Assembly: GCA_038253595.1 (NCBI GenBank)
Contig: JBBSHA010000001.1
Location: 1 to 31,548, forward strand
DNA: 31,548 nt
Source: Candidatus Dormibacterales bacterium
Lineage (GTDB): Bacteria > Chloroflexota > Dormibacteria > Dormibacterales > Dormibacteraceae
Direction: 5' to 3'
Shown: piece by piece, positions 5,283 through 11,433 of the stretch
Layout: each line of letters begins with the position of its first letter
How positions within the stretch are numbered: position 1 is the stretch's first letter
Notes under the pieces: model-generated
The model's database searches: none
What the model was told of the DNA's origin: nothing
Seen by the model: only the letters and a program-made list of their open reading frames with translations
Translations under genes and position numbers: made by a program

Positions 5283-5921
5283 CTAACCGGCTTCGGCCAG
5301 CGGGAGCACCCTGGCTCGTGTCCGCTCTCCGTCCAGTTCGAGCACGCCGACGCTGGCGACCTGGCGGTCCCGGCGGTGGCGGACCACCTGCAGCCACGAC
5401 CACTCGAACCACCCCGGCTTCAGCCCCAGCCGCCGCCGCGCCTCCTGGGGGGTCACCAGGTAGACCGCGCCCGGGTTGAAGAGCAGGGCCCCCGACGCCG
5501 TCTCGACGCGGGCCTGGTGGGTGTGTCCGTAGAGGATCACATCGGCGCGCGGGAACTGCCGGCGCAGCCAGCGCGTGAGGCCGGCCCGGGGCCAGAGCCG
5601 GCCCAGGGTCAGCGTCCAGATCAACGTGATCGGCTCCTCCAGGAGGCGGGTCCGGTTGCCGTGGACGACCGCGATCCGGTGCCCCCCGACGTCCATCTCC
5701 AAGCGCTCCGGCAGGCCGCCCAGGCCGGCATCGTGATCGCCGCGGACCGCGTGCACGGGGGCGATCAGGCGCAGCGCGGCCAGCGTCGCCTCCCCGCCGG
5801 GGCCCCCGACGTCGCCGCAATGGAGGATCAGCGCCACCCCCCGCAGCCGCTCCAGCACCGGGCCCGGCAGCTCACCCGCGTACTCGGGGCAGTGGGTGTC
5901 CGAGACGACGCCGATGCGCAT
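5283..5921 (-). CDS. Calcineurin-like metallophosphoesterase (YfcE/Vps29-like)
   Basis: SDTH, HCGD, RGDHD, VHGN, YGHTH and FNPGA motifs. Confidence 0.88.
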   Translation of the reverse strand: MRIGVVSDTHCPEYAGELPGPVLERLRGVALILHCGDVGGPGGEATLAALRLIAPVHAVRGDHDAGLGGLPERLEMDVGGHRIAVVHGNRTRLLEEPITLIWTLTLGRLWPRAGLTRWLRRQFPRADVILYGHTHQARVETASGALLFNPGAVYLVTPQEARRRLGLKPGWFEWSWLQVVRHRRDRQVASVGVLELDGERTRARVLPLAEAG

Positions 5922-5970: not shown

Positions 5971-6972
5971 TCAGCTCGCGGCGAACACGTGCCGGCCGAG
6001 GTCCTCGGCCCTCGGCTGCGGCTGGGCTTCGGCCCAGTCGGCCGCCTCTCCCGCCTCCCGGTCCAGCTCCTCCCGGATCGCCTTGGAGCGGGCGCCGCTC
6101 AGCCGGCCGCGGGCGATCAGCCAGTCCTCGAAACGGAGAAGCGGGTCGTGGCGGGAGGCGTCCTCCAGCTCCTCGGGGCTGCGGTACTTGGCCTGGTTGT
6201 CCTCCGAGGTGTGGGAGTTGATGCGCCAGATCCGGGCCTCGATCAGCGTCGGCCCGGCGCCCGAGCGGGCCCGGGCCACCGCCTCCCGGGCCGCCGTGTG
6301 GCAGGCGGGCACGTCGGTCCCGTCGACCGTCACTCCGACCATGCCGTAGCCCTCGGCGCGCTCGGCCAGGTGCACGTTGCCCGCCTGCAGCCGGAGCGGC
6401 ACCGAGATCGCGTAGCCGTTGTTCTCGCAGACGAAGATCACCGGCAGCCGGTGCACGCCCGCGAAGTTGAGGCCCTCGTGGAAGCCGGTCGACGAGGTCG
6501 AGCCGTCGCCGAACGTGCACAGGGTCACCTCGTCCAGGCCGCGCAGGCGGCTGGCGTAGGCGATTCCCGCCGCCTTGGGGATCCAGGTCCCGATCACCTG
6601 GGAGACGGACGCGACCCGGAGCCGGGGCAGGGAGAAGCAGCCGCCGGGGATGTTGCGGCCTCCCGACAGGGGGTCGGCGGCACGCGCGAACACCGCCAGC
6701 ATCCACTCCCGGGCCGTCAGGCCGCGGGTGACGGCGTTGCCGAGACCCCGGTAGTGGGGCACCAGCCAGTCCGTGGGCCGCAGCGCCGCCGTGCTGGCGA
6801 CCTGGATCCCCTCGTGGCCGCGGGAGGAGCCGACGAACGGTGCCCGGCCCTGCTTGACCAGAATGTGCATCCGGTCGTCGAGGGCCTTGGCCATGACCAT
6901 CGCGCGATGGATCTGGAGGTACTCCTCCGGAGTCGCCGGGGGCGCCTCCTCAGTGTCCAGCGATCTGTCCAC
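5971..6972 (-). CDS. TPP-dependent 2-oxoacid dehydrogenase E1 alpha subunit (branched-chain type likely)
   Basis: GHEGIQVA, TPP motif FGDGSTS...CENNGYAIS, SHTSEDN...YRS loop. Overlaps the upstream synthase by 23 nt. No beta or E2 gene follows. Confidence 0.88.
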   Translation of the reverse strand: MDRSLDTEEAPPATPEEYLQIHRAMVMAKALDDRMHILVKQGRAPFVGSSRGHEGIQVASTAALRPTDWLVPHYRGLGNAVTRGLTAREWMLAVFARAADPLSGGRNIPGGCFSLPRLRVASVSQVIGTWIPKAAGIAYASRLRGLDEVTLCTFGDGSTSSTGFHEGLNFAGVHRLPVIFVCENNGYAISVPLRLQAGNVHLAERAEGYGMVGVTVDGTDVPACHTAAREAVARARSGAGPTLIEARIWRINSHTSEDNQAKYRSPEELEDASRHDPLLRFEDWLIARGRLSGARSKAIREELDREAGEAADWAEAQPQPRAEDLGRHVFAAS

Positions 6973-8341
6973 GCAGGGCGGCGGCGATCTCGACCACCTC
7001 CTCGGAGCTGACCCCCATCCCCTGCAGGTGGTCGTGGTAGCGGCGCTGGAAGTCGGCGAAGTCAGCCGTCTCGGCGCGCTCCTCGCGGAGCCGCTTCACC
7101 TCCTCCATGACGCGGCCCACCAGCGCCGGCTCGGGATCCATGCCCGCCCCCCGCAACGCGTGCTCGATGGCCAGCGTGCCCGAGTGCTTGCCGTACACGT
7201 AGCGCACCTCGCCCCCCAGGTCGGCGGGCGGGATGAACTGGTAGATGGCGGGGTGGATGAGCATTCCCGCGGTGTGAATGCCCGACTCGTGGCTGAACAC
7301 GTTGAGGCCGATCCCCGGCTCGGTGGGCGAGACCGGGATCCCGCTGACCCGCTCCATGTGCTGGGCGAGCCGGCGCAGCCGCTCGTAGCGGAAGCCGGGC
7401 AGCTCGATGCCGAACAGATAGCGGAGCTGGAGCAGGACCTGGTGCATCGGGGCGTTGCCGGTGCGCTCGCCGATCCCGTTGACGCTGGTGGTGAAGACGT
7501 CGGCACCCGAACCCAGCGCGACCACCGTGTTCCAGGCCCCCAGGCCGAGGTCGTTGTGGAAGTGGACAACCAGCGGGGCGCCCGGGCTGGCCGCCCGCAA
7601 CGCTCCCACGTACTCGCGGACCGCGAACGGCGAGTAGCAGCCGACGGTGTCCGGGGTCGAGGGCCGGCTGCCCCCCGCCTCGAGACCGACAGCGTGGATC
7701 CGCTTGATGTACTCGACGTCGGCGCGGGAGCCGTCCTCGCCCCCGAACTCGATCACGGCCGCGCCCTGCTCGCGAGCGTAGCGGATGGCGGCGGCCAGCA
7801 TCCTGAGGTTGGCCTCCCGGTAGAACTCCAGCGGCAGCTCCAGCCACTCGCCGGCCGGCACGCCCTCCCGGGCCAGCAGCGTCCGGCCCAGCTTGTACTT
7901 GAGGTGGAGGTCGGAGGCCGAGGTGAATATGAAGTAGCTGACCTCGTCGCGGCGACGGCCGAGCCCGTCCATGACGCGCATCGTGGCGTCGATGTCGGCC
8001 GGATTGCTGCGCATCATGCAGAGCACCTCCAGGTCCTCTCGCAGCTCGCCCCGGCGGCGCCCCTCCAGAACCAGCCGCAGGGTCTCCCGCTCGCTCTCCG
8101 ACACCGCCGGGAAGCCGACGTCCATGATGTGGACTCCGATCTCGCTCAGCTCGCGGGCCAGCTCGTACTTGACCGCCGGCGAGAACGCCACGCCCGGCAT
8201 CTGCTCGCCGTCGCGGAGCGTGTCGTCGTAGACCCGGATCGCGCCCGGCTCGGGGAACCGGAGGTCGTGACCGAACCGGGTCGGGTCGCGGATCAGCTCG
8301 GCCAGCGGCTCCTGGAGCTGCACCGGCTCAACCCCGTCCAC
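6950..8341 (-). CDS. LeuA/homocitrate/citramalate-synthase-family (DRE-TIM) 2-oxoacid:acyl-CoA condensing enzyme without the regulatory domain
   Basis: DDTLRDGEQ, PDTVG, HFHNDLG, GIGERTGNA, HESGIH, GKHSG. Ends soon after subdomain II. Substrate cannot be assigned from sequence. Confidence 0.85.
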   Translation of the reverse strand: MDGVEPVQLQEPLAELIRDPTRFGHDLRFPEPGAIRVYDDTLRDGEQMPGVAFSPAVKYELARELSEIGVHIMDVGFPAVSESERETLRLVLEGRRRGELREDLEVLCMMRSNPADIDATMRVMDGLGRRRDEVSYFIFTSASDLHLKYKLGRTLLAREGVPAGEWLELPLEFYREANLRMLAAAIRYAREQGAAVIEFGGEDGSRADVEYIKRIHAVGLEAGGSRPSTPDTVGCYSPFAVREYVGALRAASPGAPLVVHFHNDLGLGAWNTVVALGSGADVFTTSVNGIGERTGNAPMHQVLLQLRYLFGIELPGFRYERLRRLAQHMERVSGIPVSPTEPGIGLNVFSHESGIHTAGMLIHPAIYQFIPPADLGGEVRYVYGKHSGTLAIEHALRGAGMDPEPALVGRVMEEVKRLREERAETADFADFQRRYHDHLQGMGVSSEEVVEIAAALRGQIAGH

Positions 8342-8346
8342 GCGGC

Positions 8347-8886
8347 TCAGCGCGCCCCCGATGGCTCTTGGCTAGCGTCCTCTTGGAGCCGGCGGCGGAC
8401 CCAGGGCACCAGGCCCCCCATCCGCATCAGCTCGTTCATGAAGGGTGGGTAGGCCTCGCACTCGTACTGGTCGCCCCGGGTCAGGTTGCGGATCACGCCC
8501 GCGTCCGGGTCCACCTCCAGCTGGTCGCCCGGCTCGATGGCCGCGGCCGCCGGCGGCGACTGCAGCACGGGGTAGGCCAGGTTGATGGCGTTGCGAAAGA
8601 AGATCCGGGCGTAGGAGTTGGCGATGACGCAGGCCACGCCGGCCCCCCGGATCGCGATCGGGGCGATCTCACGCGACGAGCCGCAGCCGAAGTTGGCGCC
8701 GGTGACCACGATGTCACCGGCTTGGATATGCTGCGACCAGCCCTCCTCGTTGCCGGGCACCCCCTCGAACACGTGCTCGCCCAGCTTCTTCTCGTCCAGC
8801 GAGTAGATGGCGTACTTGGCGGGGATGATCTGGTCGGTGTCGACGTTGTCCCCGAAGCGCCAGGCGGCCCCTCGGAGCACGCTCAT
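8347..8886 (-). CDS. leuD: Isopropylmalate/homoaconitate-type isomerase small subunit
   Basis: FGDNVDTDQIIPAKY, GANFGCGSSREIA, SYARIFFRNAIN. Confidence 0.9.
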   Translation of the reverse strand: MSVLRGAAWRFGDNVDTDQIIPAKYAIYSLDEKKLGEHVFEGVPGNEEGWSQHIQAGDIVVTGANFGCGSSREIAPIAIRGAGVACVIANSYARIFFRNAINLAYPVLQSPPAAAAIEPGDQLEVDPDAGVIRNLTRGDQYECEAYPPFMNELMRMGGLVPWVRRRLQEDASQEPSGAR

Positions 8887-10169
8887 ACGGCCACCGGCGC
8901 ACGGTCAAGGAGTTCCCGGGGGTGGATGATCTGGCCGGCCACCGCGCTGGCGGCGGCCACCACCGGGTTGCTCAGGTAGACCTGGGCCTTGGGGTCGCCC
9001 ATCCGGCCCGGGAAGTTGCGGTTGGAGGTGCTGAGGCAGACCTCGCCCGCCCCGACCACACCCATGTGGCCGCCCAGGCAGGCGCCGCACGTGGAGGCCG
9101 TCCACGCCGCCCCGGCGTCCATGAAGATCCCGATCAGGCCCTCGCGCTCGCACTGGCGGGCGACCTCGGCGGAGGAGGGCGTGATGATCAGGCGCAGCCC
9201 GGGGGCCACGTGGCGACCCTGCAGCACCTGGGCCGCCTTGCGCAGGTCGGAGATCCTGGAGTTGGTGCAGGAGCCGATGAACACCTGGTCGAGCCGGGTG
9301 CCGGCGACCTGGTCGATGCTGGCCATGTTGTCGGGCGAGTTGGGGCAGGCGAGCGTGATCCCCACCTTCTCGGCGTCGAAATCGAAGGTCTTCTCGTAGA
9401 CCGCGTCGGGATCGGAGGCGACGGGCGTGTACGCGCGCTGGGCGCGGCCGCGCAGGTACTCCTCGGTGATCTGGTCGCAGGCCATGATTCCGTTCTTGGC
9501 GCCGGCCTCGATGGCCATGTTGGTCATCGTCAGGCGGCCCTCCATGTCGATCGCCTCGAGGGCGGCGCCGGAGTGCTCCATGGCCTTGGAGCGGGCCCCG
9601 TCGACGCCGATGGTGCCGATCACGTGGAGGATCAGGTCCTTGGCCTCGACCCACTCCGGGAGTTGGTTGTGATAGACGAAATGGAGTGACTCCGGGACCC
9701 TGAACCACAGCTCGCCCAGCGCCAGCACGCAGGCCAGGTCGGTGGAGCCGATGCCGGTTGCGAAGTTGTTGAGCGCGCCGTAGGTGCAGGAGTGGGAATC
9801 GGCCCCCACCACCAGCTCGCCGGGCAGGACCAGCCCGCGTTCGGGCAGCACCGTGTGGCAGATGCCACCCTGGCCGACCTCGAAGTACCACCTGATGCCC
9901 ATGTCCCGAGCGAACTCGCGGGTGAGCCGGCCCAGGGTGGCGCTGGCGGCGTCCTTGGCGGGCTGGAAGTGGTCCTGGACCACCGCCACCCGCTCCGCGT
10001 CCCACACCTGCTGGGCGCCCATCTGCTCGCGCATGATCCGGCCGGCGGGCGGGATGGTCAGGTCGTGACCCATCGCGAAGTCGACCCGGGCCATAAGCAG
10101 GTCGCCGGGGCGGACGCTCTCCCGGCCGGCGGCGCGGGCCAGAATCTTCTCCGACATCGTCATGCCCAT
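8883..10169 (-). CDS. leuC: Isopropylmalate/homoaconitate-type isomerase large subunit (short Hac/LeuC2 type)
   Basis: EKILAR, QDH, GADSHSCTYG, GSCTN, CGACLG (the three Fe-S cysteines), STSNRNFPGRMG. Confidence 0.92.
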   Translation of the reverse strand: MGMTMSEKILARAAGRESVRPGDLLMARVDFAMGHDLTIPPAGRIMREQMGAQQVWDAERVAVVQDHFQPAKDAASATLGRLTREFARDMGIRWYFEVGQGGICHTVLPERGLVLPGELVVGADSHSCTYGALNNFATGIGSTDLACVLALGELWFRVPESLHFVYHNQLPEWVEAKDLILHVIGTIGVDGARSKAMEHSGAALEAIDMEGRLTMTNMAIEAGAKNGIMACDQITEEYLRGRAQRAYTPVASDPDAVYEKTFDFDAEKVGITLACPNSPDNMASIDQVAGTRLDQVFIGSCTNSRISDLRKAAQVLQGRHVAPGLRLIITPSSAEVARQCEREGLIGIFMDAGAAWTASTCGACLGGHMGVVGAGEVCLSTSNRNFPGRMGDPKAQVYLSNPVVAAASAVAGQIIHPRELLDRAPVAV

Positions 10170-10181
10170 GGCGTCCTAAGA

Positions 10182-10233
10182 CCTCCTCACGACGGCGTCC
10201 GCATTGACTCTAGAGCCTCCTCACGACGGCGTC
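10182..10233. repeat. 18-bp perfect direct repeat CCTCCTCACGACGGCGTC with 34-bp period, duplicating the leuB 3' end
   Basis: Copies at 10182-10199 and 10216-10233. Confidence 0.9.
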
Positions 10234-11235
10234 ACCGGCCGCGCCAGTGTGGAGCGAGCCGCCGAGGTCGCGGGTGCAGTCGCCGGCCGCGATCGCCTCC
10301 ACGACAGCGGCTTCGATCCTCCGCGCCGTCTCCTCGTCACCGAGGTGCTCGACCATCATAGCCGCGCTGAGGATCGCCCCGAAGGGGTTGGCGATGCCCT
10401 GCCCGGCGATGTTGGGCGCGCTCCCGTGGACCGGTTCGAAAAGCCCCCGCCCGGACTCCGGGTTGACGTTGCCGGAGGGGGCCACGCCCATCCCGCCGAT
10501 CAGCGCCGCGGCCAGATCGCTGAGGATGTCGCCGAACAGGTTGCCGGTCACCAGCACCTCGAACTGGGTCGGATCGCGGACCAGTTCCATGGCCGCCGCG
10601 TCCACGTAGAGGTGGCGGGTCTCGATGGCCGGGTGGGACTCCCGGATCTCCGCCCAGCGGTCCTGCCAGAGACCGCCCGCGTGACTCATGGCGTTCGACT
10701 TGTCGACCATGCATAGCTTCCGCTGCGCCCGCTGGAAGCCGTACTCGATGATCCGGCTGACCCCGTGATGGGTGTTCAGGTCCTCCTGGATCGCCACCTC
10801 GTGCCCGGTCCCCTTGCGAAAGCGGCCCCCGGCGCCCACGTAGGCGCCCTCGGTGTTCTCGCGGATGATGAGCATCTCGATCGGGCGCCGGGCGGGGTCG
10901 CGGAGCGGGCTCAGGCGGTCGTGGTAGAGCCGGGCCGGGCGCAGGTTGGCGTAGAGGTCGAGCTCGAAGCGCAGGCGCAGCAGCACCTGGGCCGGGTAGC
11001 CGACGTCGGGGATCCGAGGGTCGCCGATCGCCCCGAAGAGGATGGCGTCGGCGCCCGAGACGGCCTGGAAGGTGGCCTCCGACATCGCCGGCTCACCGCG
11101 CAGAATGGGCCCGGCCCCCACCTCGAAGTCCTCGAACTCGTAGCCGAGGCCGGCCGCCTCCAGCACCCTCACCGCCTCGGGCACGACCTCCCGGCCGGCC
11201 AGGTCGCCGGCCATCACGGCGATGTGCTTGCTCAC
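10210..11235 (-). CDS. leuB: Beta-decarboxylating dehydrogenase, 3-isopropylmalate dehydrogenase type
   Basis: [47 protein letters not shown]. Confidence 0.88.
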
Positions 11236-11241
11236 CTCGGG

Positions 11242-11247
11242 AGCGTA
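11242..11247 (-). promoter_or_regulatory. -10 hexamer TACGCT, leaderless promoter candidate for leuB
   Basis: Exactly 6 nt upstream of the GTG at 11235. Confidence 0.55.
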
Positions 11248-11284
11248 TCCGAAGCGCCGTCCGCTCCTCGGTCGGCTGGGGTCG

Positions 11285-11386
11285 GTGAAGGTCGTAGTCT
11301 TTTCGGACGTGAGCGGGGCCGAAGAAGCCGTGGAGATCTACATCCGCCACCACCCGCAGGTCGGGCTGACCCGCGCCCAACCCTGA
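11285..11386 (+). CDS. Putative 33-aa ORF MKVVVFSDVSGAEEAVEIYIRHHPQVGLTRAQP (alternative start GTG 11309)
   Basis: About 28 of 33 codons end in G/C. It fills an otherwise empty intergenic gap. No strong SD. Confidence 0.3.
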   Translation: MKVVVFSDVSGAEEAVEIYIRHHPQVGLTRAQP

Positions 11387-11433
11387 ACGCGGCGGCGGGG
11401 GCGGGCCTCCAACTACGGCGCCGCCACCCCGGC

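Follow-up and report, generated by a model that had tools for sequence, protein, structure and literature searches.

A conserved gene cassette in the Dormibacteraceae that may join 2-oxoacid chain elongation to an E1 alpha subunit

The stretch of DNA analysed here (the window) comprises 31,548 nucleotides (nt) from a genome of Candidatus Dormibacterales bacterium, family Dormibacteraceae, and contains at 5971-11235 five adjoining genes, which encode a LeuB-type dehydrogenase, the large and small subunits (LSU and SSU) of an aconitase-type isomerase, a LeuA-family synthase, and the alpha subunit (E1alpha) of the E1 component of a 2-oxoacid dehydrogenase. Comparison across the family indicates that the real unit is a cassette of four genes, LSU-SSU-synthase-E1alpha, which stands behind a housekeeping leuB. 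We propose, with a probability of roughly one in two, that this cassette encodes a third alkylmalate-type pathway, apart from the leucine route and the citramalate route to isoleucine, and that it is coupled to an E1 enzyme. Dormibacteria are a widespread uncultured soil lineage whose metabolism is known from genomes only, and a literature search returned no paper on isopropylmalate in Dormibacter.

The source is a metagenome-assembled genome (MAG) of 2.07 Mb over 266 contigs, with a completeness of about 60%, in which the window is contig C1. The five open reading frames (ORFs) all lie on the minus strand and have a high G+C content at third codon positions (GC3), as coding DNA would show. 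They are listed here from leuB onwards, followed by the two flanking genes (aa, amino acids).

10210-11235, minus strand: leuB-type dehydrogenase (Iso_dh), 341 aa, PF00180
8883-10169, minus strand: aconitase-type large subunit (LSU), 428 aa, PF00330
8347-8886, minus strand: small subunit (SSU), Aconitase_C, 179 aa, PF00694
6950-8341, minus strand: LeuA-family synthase, HMGL-like and HCS_D2 domains, 463 aa, PF00682 and PF22617
5971-6972, minus strand: E1alpha, E1_dh, 333 aa, PF00676
11434-12990, minus strand: acyl-coenzyme A (CoA) ligase of the benzoate-CoA-ligase family, TIGR02262 at 619 bits against a cut-off of 375
5283-5921: YfcE-type metallophosphoesterase, the next gene after E1alpha

The first-pass annotation of the window had described the five genes as contiguous, and the spacings it gave hold exactly: from leuB to E1alpha, a gap of 40 nt, an overlap of 4 nt, a gap of 5 nt and an overlap of 23 nt. 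The start of E1alpha is a GTG at 6972, the sole canonical start upstream of the conserved N-terminus. It had also pointed out that no gene for E1beta, E2 or E3 follows E1alpha. Indeed, the phosphoesterase gene comes next and then a DnaJ gene, and no such subunit follows in 18 relatives either. The variable DNA 3' of E1alpha in relatives, checked for a hidden E1beta or E2, contained only genes for major facilitator superfamily (MFS) transporters and DUF4097/SHOCT proteins and a single high-GC ORF without assignment.

The distribution of the cassette was surveyed in 36 genomes of the family and in 84 genomes of four sister families; the counts of 34 of 36 take in genomes G089 and G101, while the detailed locus analysis used other genomes. 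Orthologues of the synthase, LSU and E1alpha co-occur in the same 34 of the 36 family genomes, at 75-88% identity for LSU and 65-74% for E1alpha, which lies beside the synthase in all 34. At the thresholds used, none of these three orthologue groups was found in the 84 sister-family genomes, which hold only remoter homologues (43-48% identity for LSU, at most 57% for E1alpha). Across a synteny set of 18 loci from at least 13 genera, SSU adjoins the other cassette genes, synthase and E1alpha are syntenic throughout, and the order CoA ligase-leuB-LSU-SSU-synthase-E1alpha is found in 17; the exception, G027, has the cassette without the ligase. A locus of sister family f3 (L165, G010:C15, 1982-9388) has the gene order E1alpha-E1beta-M55 D-aminopeptidase-TrpD-like phosphoribosyltransferase-leuB, followed by a 684-aa fusion in which the small-subunit domain precedes the large-subunit domain (LeuD-LeuC order).

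LSU, SSU, synthase and E1alpha are missing together from G003 and G083, which represent two sister genera. G003 keeps all the flanking genes, and its phosphoesterase gene directly adjoins leuB; in G083 the same two genes are separated by two unrelated minus-strand ORFs. According to the leuB tree the two genomes are sisters (Shimodaira-Hasegawa-like approximate likelihood-ratio test, SH-aLRT, 89), nested in a clade of cassette-bearing genomes (98). On this single-gene tree, a single event in which the four genes were deleted as one block is probably the simplest history of their absence.

This pattern sets leuB apart from the genes that follow it. Orthologues of leuB are found in 36 of 36 family genomes, and G003 and G083 keep theirs at the same locus. 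The window gene (PF00180, 317 bits) has LeuB model NF002898 as its top NCBIfam match, at 354.8 bits against a cut-off of 393; in G007, G071 and G023 it is the orthologue at this locus that matches the model best, at 373-388 bits against the same cut-off, and the complete relatives each have three Iso_dh genes, of which those beyond leuB resemble isocitrate dehydrogenase or tartrate dehydrogenase. Since leuB encodes the family's sole good LeuB and stays in place even where a relative has none of the other four genes, it does not belong to the module alone, and the first-pass picture of a complete, private leuB-C-D-A set has to be given up. The gene is a housekeeping one, presumably lent to the cassette as its dehydrogenase. 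An Iso_dh paralogue on contig C53 of the same genome (1635-2678), found also in G027 (contig C31) and present in some family genomes only, has a first-sight likeness to a second leuB; we rejected it as such, as it scores above the cut-off of TIGR02089 and is of the tartrate dehydrogenase type.

The search for a second leuA and leuCD, which the first-pass annotation had proposed, turned up both on other contigs of the same genome: a canonical long LeuA (TIGR00970, 801 bits against 697), a canonical LeuC (TIGR00170, 689 bits) and a LeuD (TIGR00171). G007, which is 96% complete, encodes an isopropylmalate synthase (NF002086, 597 bits against 532) beside ilvB/ilvN/ilvC and divergent from leuCD, as well as a citramalate synthase of 550 aa (TIGR00977, 638 bits against 450); a canonical leuC is also found there. 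Because a separate leuA and leuCD exist in the source genome, and isopropylmalate and citramalate synthases together with leuCD in G007, the window genes are not an ordinary leu operon, and the window synthase and the LSU/SSU pair can be counted as a third LeuA-family enzyme and a second isomerase, respectively. Immediately upstream of the cluster, genus g10 carries genes for a biosynthetic threonine dehydratase and for a long canonical LeuA (TIGR00970, 830 bits; L051, G056:C13, 13857-16896), so that this locus forms a wider branched-chain amino-acid neighbourhood.

The synthase belongs to the DRE-TIM metallolyase/LeuA superfamily (PF00682, 169 bits) and conserves its RDGEQ, HFHND and ESGIH motifs. 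It consists of the HMGL-like and HCS_D2 domains only, with no C-terminal leucine-binding regulatory domain. No NCBIfam equivalog cut-off is reached: scores against the isopropylmalate synthase models are 285.9 bits against 517 (NF002085), 193 against 599 (TIGR00973) and 47 against 697 (TIGR00970), those against the citramalate synthase models are 120.9 against 450 (TIGR00977) and 90 against 950 (NF042433), and the matches to the homocitrate synthase models (NifV, LysS) are likewise sub-threshold. The nearest solved structures are the methylthioalkylmalate synthase of Brassica (6e1j, E 2e-62) and the homocitrate synthase of Sulfolobus (6ktq), both of which lack an insertion of about 20 residues found in the window enzyme. 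By exhaustive profile search, the proteins that carry this insertion form a small, distinct subfamily of about 465-485 aa and 43-59% identity, which a genome scan placed in Dormibacterota, many Eremiobacterota/Vulcanimicrobiota, Acidobacteriota, Nitrospirota, Firestonebacteria, Calditrichaeota and Streptomyces blastmyceticus; one further representative is labelled as coming from a Myxococcales MAG.

In Eremiobacterota/Vulcanimicrobiota (L089-L132) the synthase gene lies directly 3' of a gene for an NDH-2-like pyridine-nucleotide-disulphide oxidoreductase, amid genes for peptide-binding proteins, a GT87 glycosyltransferase and M55 peptidases. In Streptomyces blastmyceticus JCM 4565 (L072, 45-17942), a synthase 48% identical to that of the window occurs with a polyketide synthase (PKS) module KR-ACP-TE, two aconitase-type LSU/SSU sets, a class I/II aminotransferase and an Fe-S assembly protein; the locus looks like a secondary-metabolite homologation cluster, in a cultured strain.

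We compared the substrate pocket by aligning the window synthase to the canonical LeuA of G007, using the selector positions that PMC12961565 lists for isopropylmalate synthase, homocitrate synthase and HphA.

Pocket position 1: Leu in canonical LeuA, Met in the window synthase
Pocket position 2: His in canonical LeuA, Phe in the window synthase
Pocket position 3: Ser in canonical LeuA, Gly in the window synthase
Pocket position 4: Asn in canonical LeuA, Ser in the window synthase
Pocket position 5: Glu in canonical LeuA, Thr in the window synthase

All five positions thus differ from the family's own canonical LeuA, and the pocket is not isopropylmalate-like. Three of the changed positions map onto Val182, Ala253 and Pro255 of the Brassica methylthioalkylmalate synthase, which are listed as guiding chain length in that enzyme (PMC8468904), and the site of the Ser to Gly change is Gly225 in 6e1j. 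The substitutions S139G, N167A and H97A open E. coli LeuA to longer or larger 2-oxoacids (PMC3370425), at positions in E. coli LeuA numbering that we infer, from the motifs, to be equivalent to those of the window pocket. The Arg and His with which homocitrate synthase binds the distal carboxylate are Glu and Met in the window synthase.

The isomerase points in a similar direction. LSU scores 579 bits with NF001614 and 533 bits with TIGR01343 (hacA_fam), in both cases above the cut-off, and falls below that of the LEU2 equivalog (555.8 against 610.65); SSU passes TIGR02087 (LEUD_arch; 166.6 bits against 108.95) and carries the GSSRE motif. As judged from these models and this motif, the pair is an archaeal-type alkylmalate isomerase of the isopropylmalate/homoaconitate family. 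The substrate-preference loop of homoaconitase in M. jannaschii is YLRT and bears an Arg. In SSU the loop, whose role in substrate recognition by the small subunit has been described (PMC7308503), reads KYAIYS and contains no Arg; SSU (YAIYS) thus does not show this feature of homoaconitase. Taken together, the changes in the synthase pocket and the loop without Arg suggest an uncharged substrate larger than 2-oxoisovalerate.

An E1alpha normally forms an alpha2beta2 enzyme with a beta subunit that is usually encoded next door, and a His in an E1 loop serves lipoyl acylation. The cassette E1alpha (PF00676, 250 bits) scores 304.6 bits with the pyruvate dehydrogenase E1 alpha model TIGR03181, below its cut-off of 411.35, and aligns end to end with the alpha subunits of Thermus (1um9 chain A, E 4e-62) and of the human branched-chain enzyme. 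Aligned to 1um9 and 1dtw, it keeps the thiamine diphosphate (ThDP) motif GDGSTS...ENNGYAIS and the loop His (SHTSED), and so looks catalytically intact. The first-pass annotation had suggested that such an alpha might borrow its beta from elsewhere. We inventoried the Transket_pyr and E1_dh genes of four complete relatives, and in all four every alpha but that of the cassette has a beta next to it. A conserved E1beta is found across the class in the arrangement GAPDH-whiA and then, divergently, a second alpha (alpha'), beta and an M24 peptidase; the whiA/alpha'/beta/M24 order is ancestral. In the source genome the arrangement is split between the end of contig C95 and contig C173, and the candidate beta lies on C173.

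The relation between the two alphas lends comparative support to borrowing. Alpha' and the cassette alpha are 47-56% identical and fall into separate clades of the alpha tree, that of the cassette alphas (99/99) on a long stem of 0.48 substitutions per site, that of alpha' supported at 99/98. In G007, G071 and G023 alpha' is gone, whiA lying about 95 nt from beta in G071, and the whiA-locus beta is the only beta left without an adjacent alpha. A single clade (100/100) unites the cassette alphas of G007, G071, G077 and G107, and the whiA-locus beta is 86-94% identical within this group. G003, which lacks the cassette, has been confirmed to retain alpha'-beta. The simplest reading of these gene inventories is that the cassette alpha would work with the whiA-locus beta, sharing it where alpha' exists and being its sole owner where alpha' is lost. 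One could also speculate that one E1beta serves two alternative alphas, a general alpha' and a cassette alpha that retargets the same E1 core, and any E2 docked on beta, to the elongation product, and that one sub-clade lost alpha', so that the cassette alpha was left as sole partner; this wider idea is tentative and, in our view, possible if somewhat doubtful. We know of no description of alpha-subunit swapping as a means of changing E1 specificity. One E2 gene adjoins lipA (contig C3 in the source genome), outside any operon; its product and the E2s of the complete operons are candidate partners of the beta subunit. The closest alpha from outside the family (57% identity; L152, G002:C6, 780-3203) has no beta beside it either; the gene before it encodes a dihydrolipoamide dehydrogenase (E3), at the end of an FtsX-M23-S41 peptidase gene row.

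In the pathway that we propose, the synthase would condense acetyl-CoA with a 2-oxoacid other than 2-oxoisovalerate, pyruvate or 2-oxoglutarate, most likely a larger, uncharged one. The dedicated LSU/SSU isomerase would then shift the hydroxyl group, and the shared LeuB would oxidise and decarboxylate the intermediate, giving a 2-oxoacid one carbon longer. The cassette E1alpha would pair with the whiA-locus E1beta, which in this genome also has an alpha of its own, and the resulting E1, with E2 and E3 encoded elsewhere, would form an acyl-CoA from the elongated 2-oxoacid. The link between E1alpha and elongation is drawn from the exact co-occurrence of the genes, their block deletion, their tight spacing and the divergent lineage of the alpha. 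The first-pass annotation had named three outcomes under which it would abandon its own reading, namely that these be the only leu genes, that the synthase be specific for isopropylmalate, and that E1alpha not be syntenic with the others in relatives; what we found is further leu genes, a pocket unlike that of isopropylmalate synthase, and synteny in all 18 loci examined.

Several observations nevertheless weigh against coupling to E1. Gene order is conserved across the family over the whole region from the H+-pyrophosphatase gene to galK, so that synteny alone is weak evidence, and the single deletion is weak as functional proof because adjacent genes go together whether or not they work together. 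In the sister family, alpha-beta lies two genes from leuB with a leuD-leuC fusion beyond, which indicates that dehydrogenase and leu genes tend to adjoin in this class. Within the synthase subfamily, E1alpha is a neighbour only in the Dormibacterota copies and never outside the family: in Eremiobacterota the synthase stands alone after the NDH-2-like gene, in three further loci from MAGs (one from Calditrichaeota) it is followed by an enoyl-CoA-hydratase-family gene, and in Streptomyces blastmyceticus it lies by the PKS module and aminotransferase, with no E1alpha. No E2 gene adjoins either the cassette alpha or the whiA-locus beta; the pocket, moreover, was read from an alignment and not from a ligand-bound structure. 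Finally, the cassette alpha seems able to replace alpha' in one sub-clade, which suggests overlapping function, and both may thus have similar specificity. The collinearity, this apparent replacement, the sister-family arrangement and the copies of the synthase without E1alpha in other phyla would all be accommodated if E1alpha were a mere neighbour, that is, a duplicated or relocated alpha of a general pyruvate or branched-chain E1 that acts with the whiA-locus beta on ordinary substrates. We regard this as rather unlikely, given that the cassette alpha forms a clade of its own on a long stem and is at most 56% identical to alpha', that it co-occurs exactly with the synthase and LSU in 34 of 36 genomes and is missing with them from G003 while alpha'-beta is kept there, and that in the window its gene overlaps that of the synthase by 23 nt, the two starting and ending no more than tens of nt apart in most relatives.

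The remaining alternatives concern the substrate. A feedback-insensitive second leucine branch, running from isopropylmalate through 2-oxoisocaproate to isovaleryl-CoA, for example for iso-branched lipid primers, would explain why the synthase has no leucine-binding regulatory domain, why leuB is common to both routes, why LSU and SSU score near the LEU2 and leud equivalogs, and why, among solved structures, E1alpha is most similar to branched-chain E1 alpha subunits. We consider it improbable all the same: four residues of the isopropyl pocket of canonical LeuA (His, Ser, Asn, Glu) are changed, the synthase falls far under every isopropylmalate synthase equivalog cut-off, and the genomes already hold an isopropylmalate synthase and leuCD. 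The use of 2-oxoadipate (homocitrate) or 2-oxobutyrate (citramalate) for amino acids is largely refuted and seems very improbable indeed. It could appeal to LSU passing the hacA_fam cut-off, to the sub-threshold matches of the synthase to NifV and LysS, and to the regulatory domain of biosynthetic threonine dehydratase (IlvA), which is present in only 6 of the 36 family genomes, so that a citramalate route to isoleucine would be needed. However, a true citramalate synthase is encoded elsewhere in G007 (638 bits with TIGR00977), and the window synthase, at 121 bits, stays below the cut-off of 450, on which grounds we rejected it as a citramalate synthase. Lysine by way of alpha-aminoadipate was rejected as well, as the Arg and His of homocitrate synthase are replaced, the SSU loop has no Arg, and all four complete relatives carry lysA, which places lysine synthesis on the diaminopimelate route. 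A third alkylmalate-type pathway coupled to E1 thus remains the reading that we prefer.

The CoA ligase upstream of leuB is a frequent, not a constant, neighbour, and it is uncertain whether it belongs to the unit. A copy stands there in most relatives, at 44-49% or 71-74% identity; it is missing from G027, which has the cassette, and from G003 and G083, which do not. In the majority of relatives examined a few tens of nt at most separate the end of the ligase gene from leuB, and because of this short spacing leuB may often be co-transcribed with it. In the window the spacer (11236-11433) measures 198 nt, against a few tens of nt at most in most relatives, and holds a GC-rich inverted repeat, GGCGGCG...CGCCGCC, without a T-run. 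The leaderless promoter that the first-pass annotation had put forward as a candidate ahead of the five genes was not confirmed: a consensus scan found no sigma-70-like site, the promoter and terminator scan of the window gave nothing above chance, and an Rfam search of the window found no RNA leader and no riboswitch; a hexamer TACGCT lies about 6 nt upstream of the GTG of leuB.

Two features of relatives concern the other end of the cassette. In genus g7 (G031, G086, G104, G095, G047, G098), synthase and E1alpha lie in one reading frame with a single TAG between them, giving stop-to-stop frames of 809-823 aa. Several relatives have 1.6-2.2 kb of about 75% GC 3' of E1alpha (e.g. L058, 11591-13237), a stretch not found in the window, which holds a 548-aa ORF without a Pfam match.

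If the proposal is true, the cassette would be a natural counterpart of the engineered "+1" LeuA pathways, with pocket-opening changes present in a wild-type enzyme and wired to a step that forms an acyl-CoA, and it would indicate that Dormibacteria make an unknown acyl-CoA or lipid precursor. The inventories of alpha and beta genes would then also suggest that exchange of the alpha subunit is a way for a 2-oxoacid dehydrogenase E1 to change its specificity.

Among known systems, the elongation sets of methanogens (LeuA/CimA/AksA, LeuCD/HacAB, LeuB/AksF) likewise provide three LeuA-family synthases and two archaeal-type isomerases per genome, with isomerase subunits in the same NCBIfam subfamilies, and reserve one set for a product other than an amino acid, as would be the case here. 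They differ in that the present genomes have one dehydrogenase only, the shared LeuB, in that the window synthase lacks the dicarboxylate-binding residues, and in that the cassette ends in E1alpha; to our knowledge, no E1alpha belongs to the 2-oxoacid elongation pathway of methanogens. The best solved-structure match, MAM1-A of Brassica juncea (6e1j), is also without the regulatory domain, and this enzyme and the engineered E. coli LeuA (S139G/N167A/H97A) resemble the window synthase in having Gly in place of the pocket Ser and a small residue in place of the Asn. The window enzyme, in contrast, is bacterial, is about 38% identical to MAM1-A at most, has the 20-aa insertion that is absent from 6e1j, and carries Phe in place of Val182 of MAM1 and Thr where MAM and isopropylmalate synthase both keep Glu.

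The cyanobacterial HphA-D pathway to homophenylalanine and homotyrosine similarly combines a LeuA-like synthase free of the regulatory domain with LeuCD-like and LeuB-like steps, and of the five selectors two are small residues in both enzymes (Ala and Ser in HphA; Gly and Thr in the window synthase). The other three selectors differ (Met, Glu and Ser in the window synthase, Ala, Asp and Met in HphA), and, unlike HphA-D, the cassette includes no aminotransferase, the elongated acid appearing to go to E1 and not to an amino acid. With the heterotetrameric E1 enzymes (Thermus thermophilus 1um9; Geobacillus pdhAB), finally, the cassette E1alpha shares an end-to-end alignment, the ThDP motif and the loop His. 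In those operons, however, alpha, beta and E2 are adjacent and dedicated, whereas here alpha is apart from beta, and the cassette alpha apparently shares its beta with, or takes it from, a second alpha.

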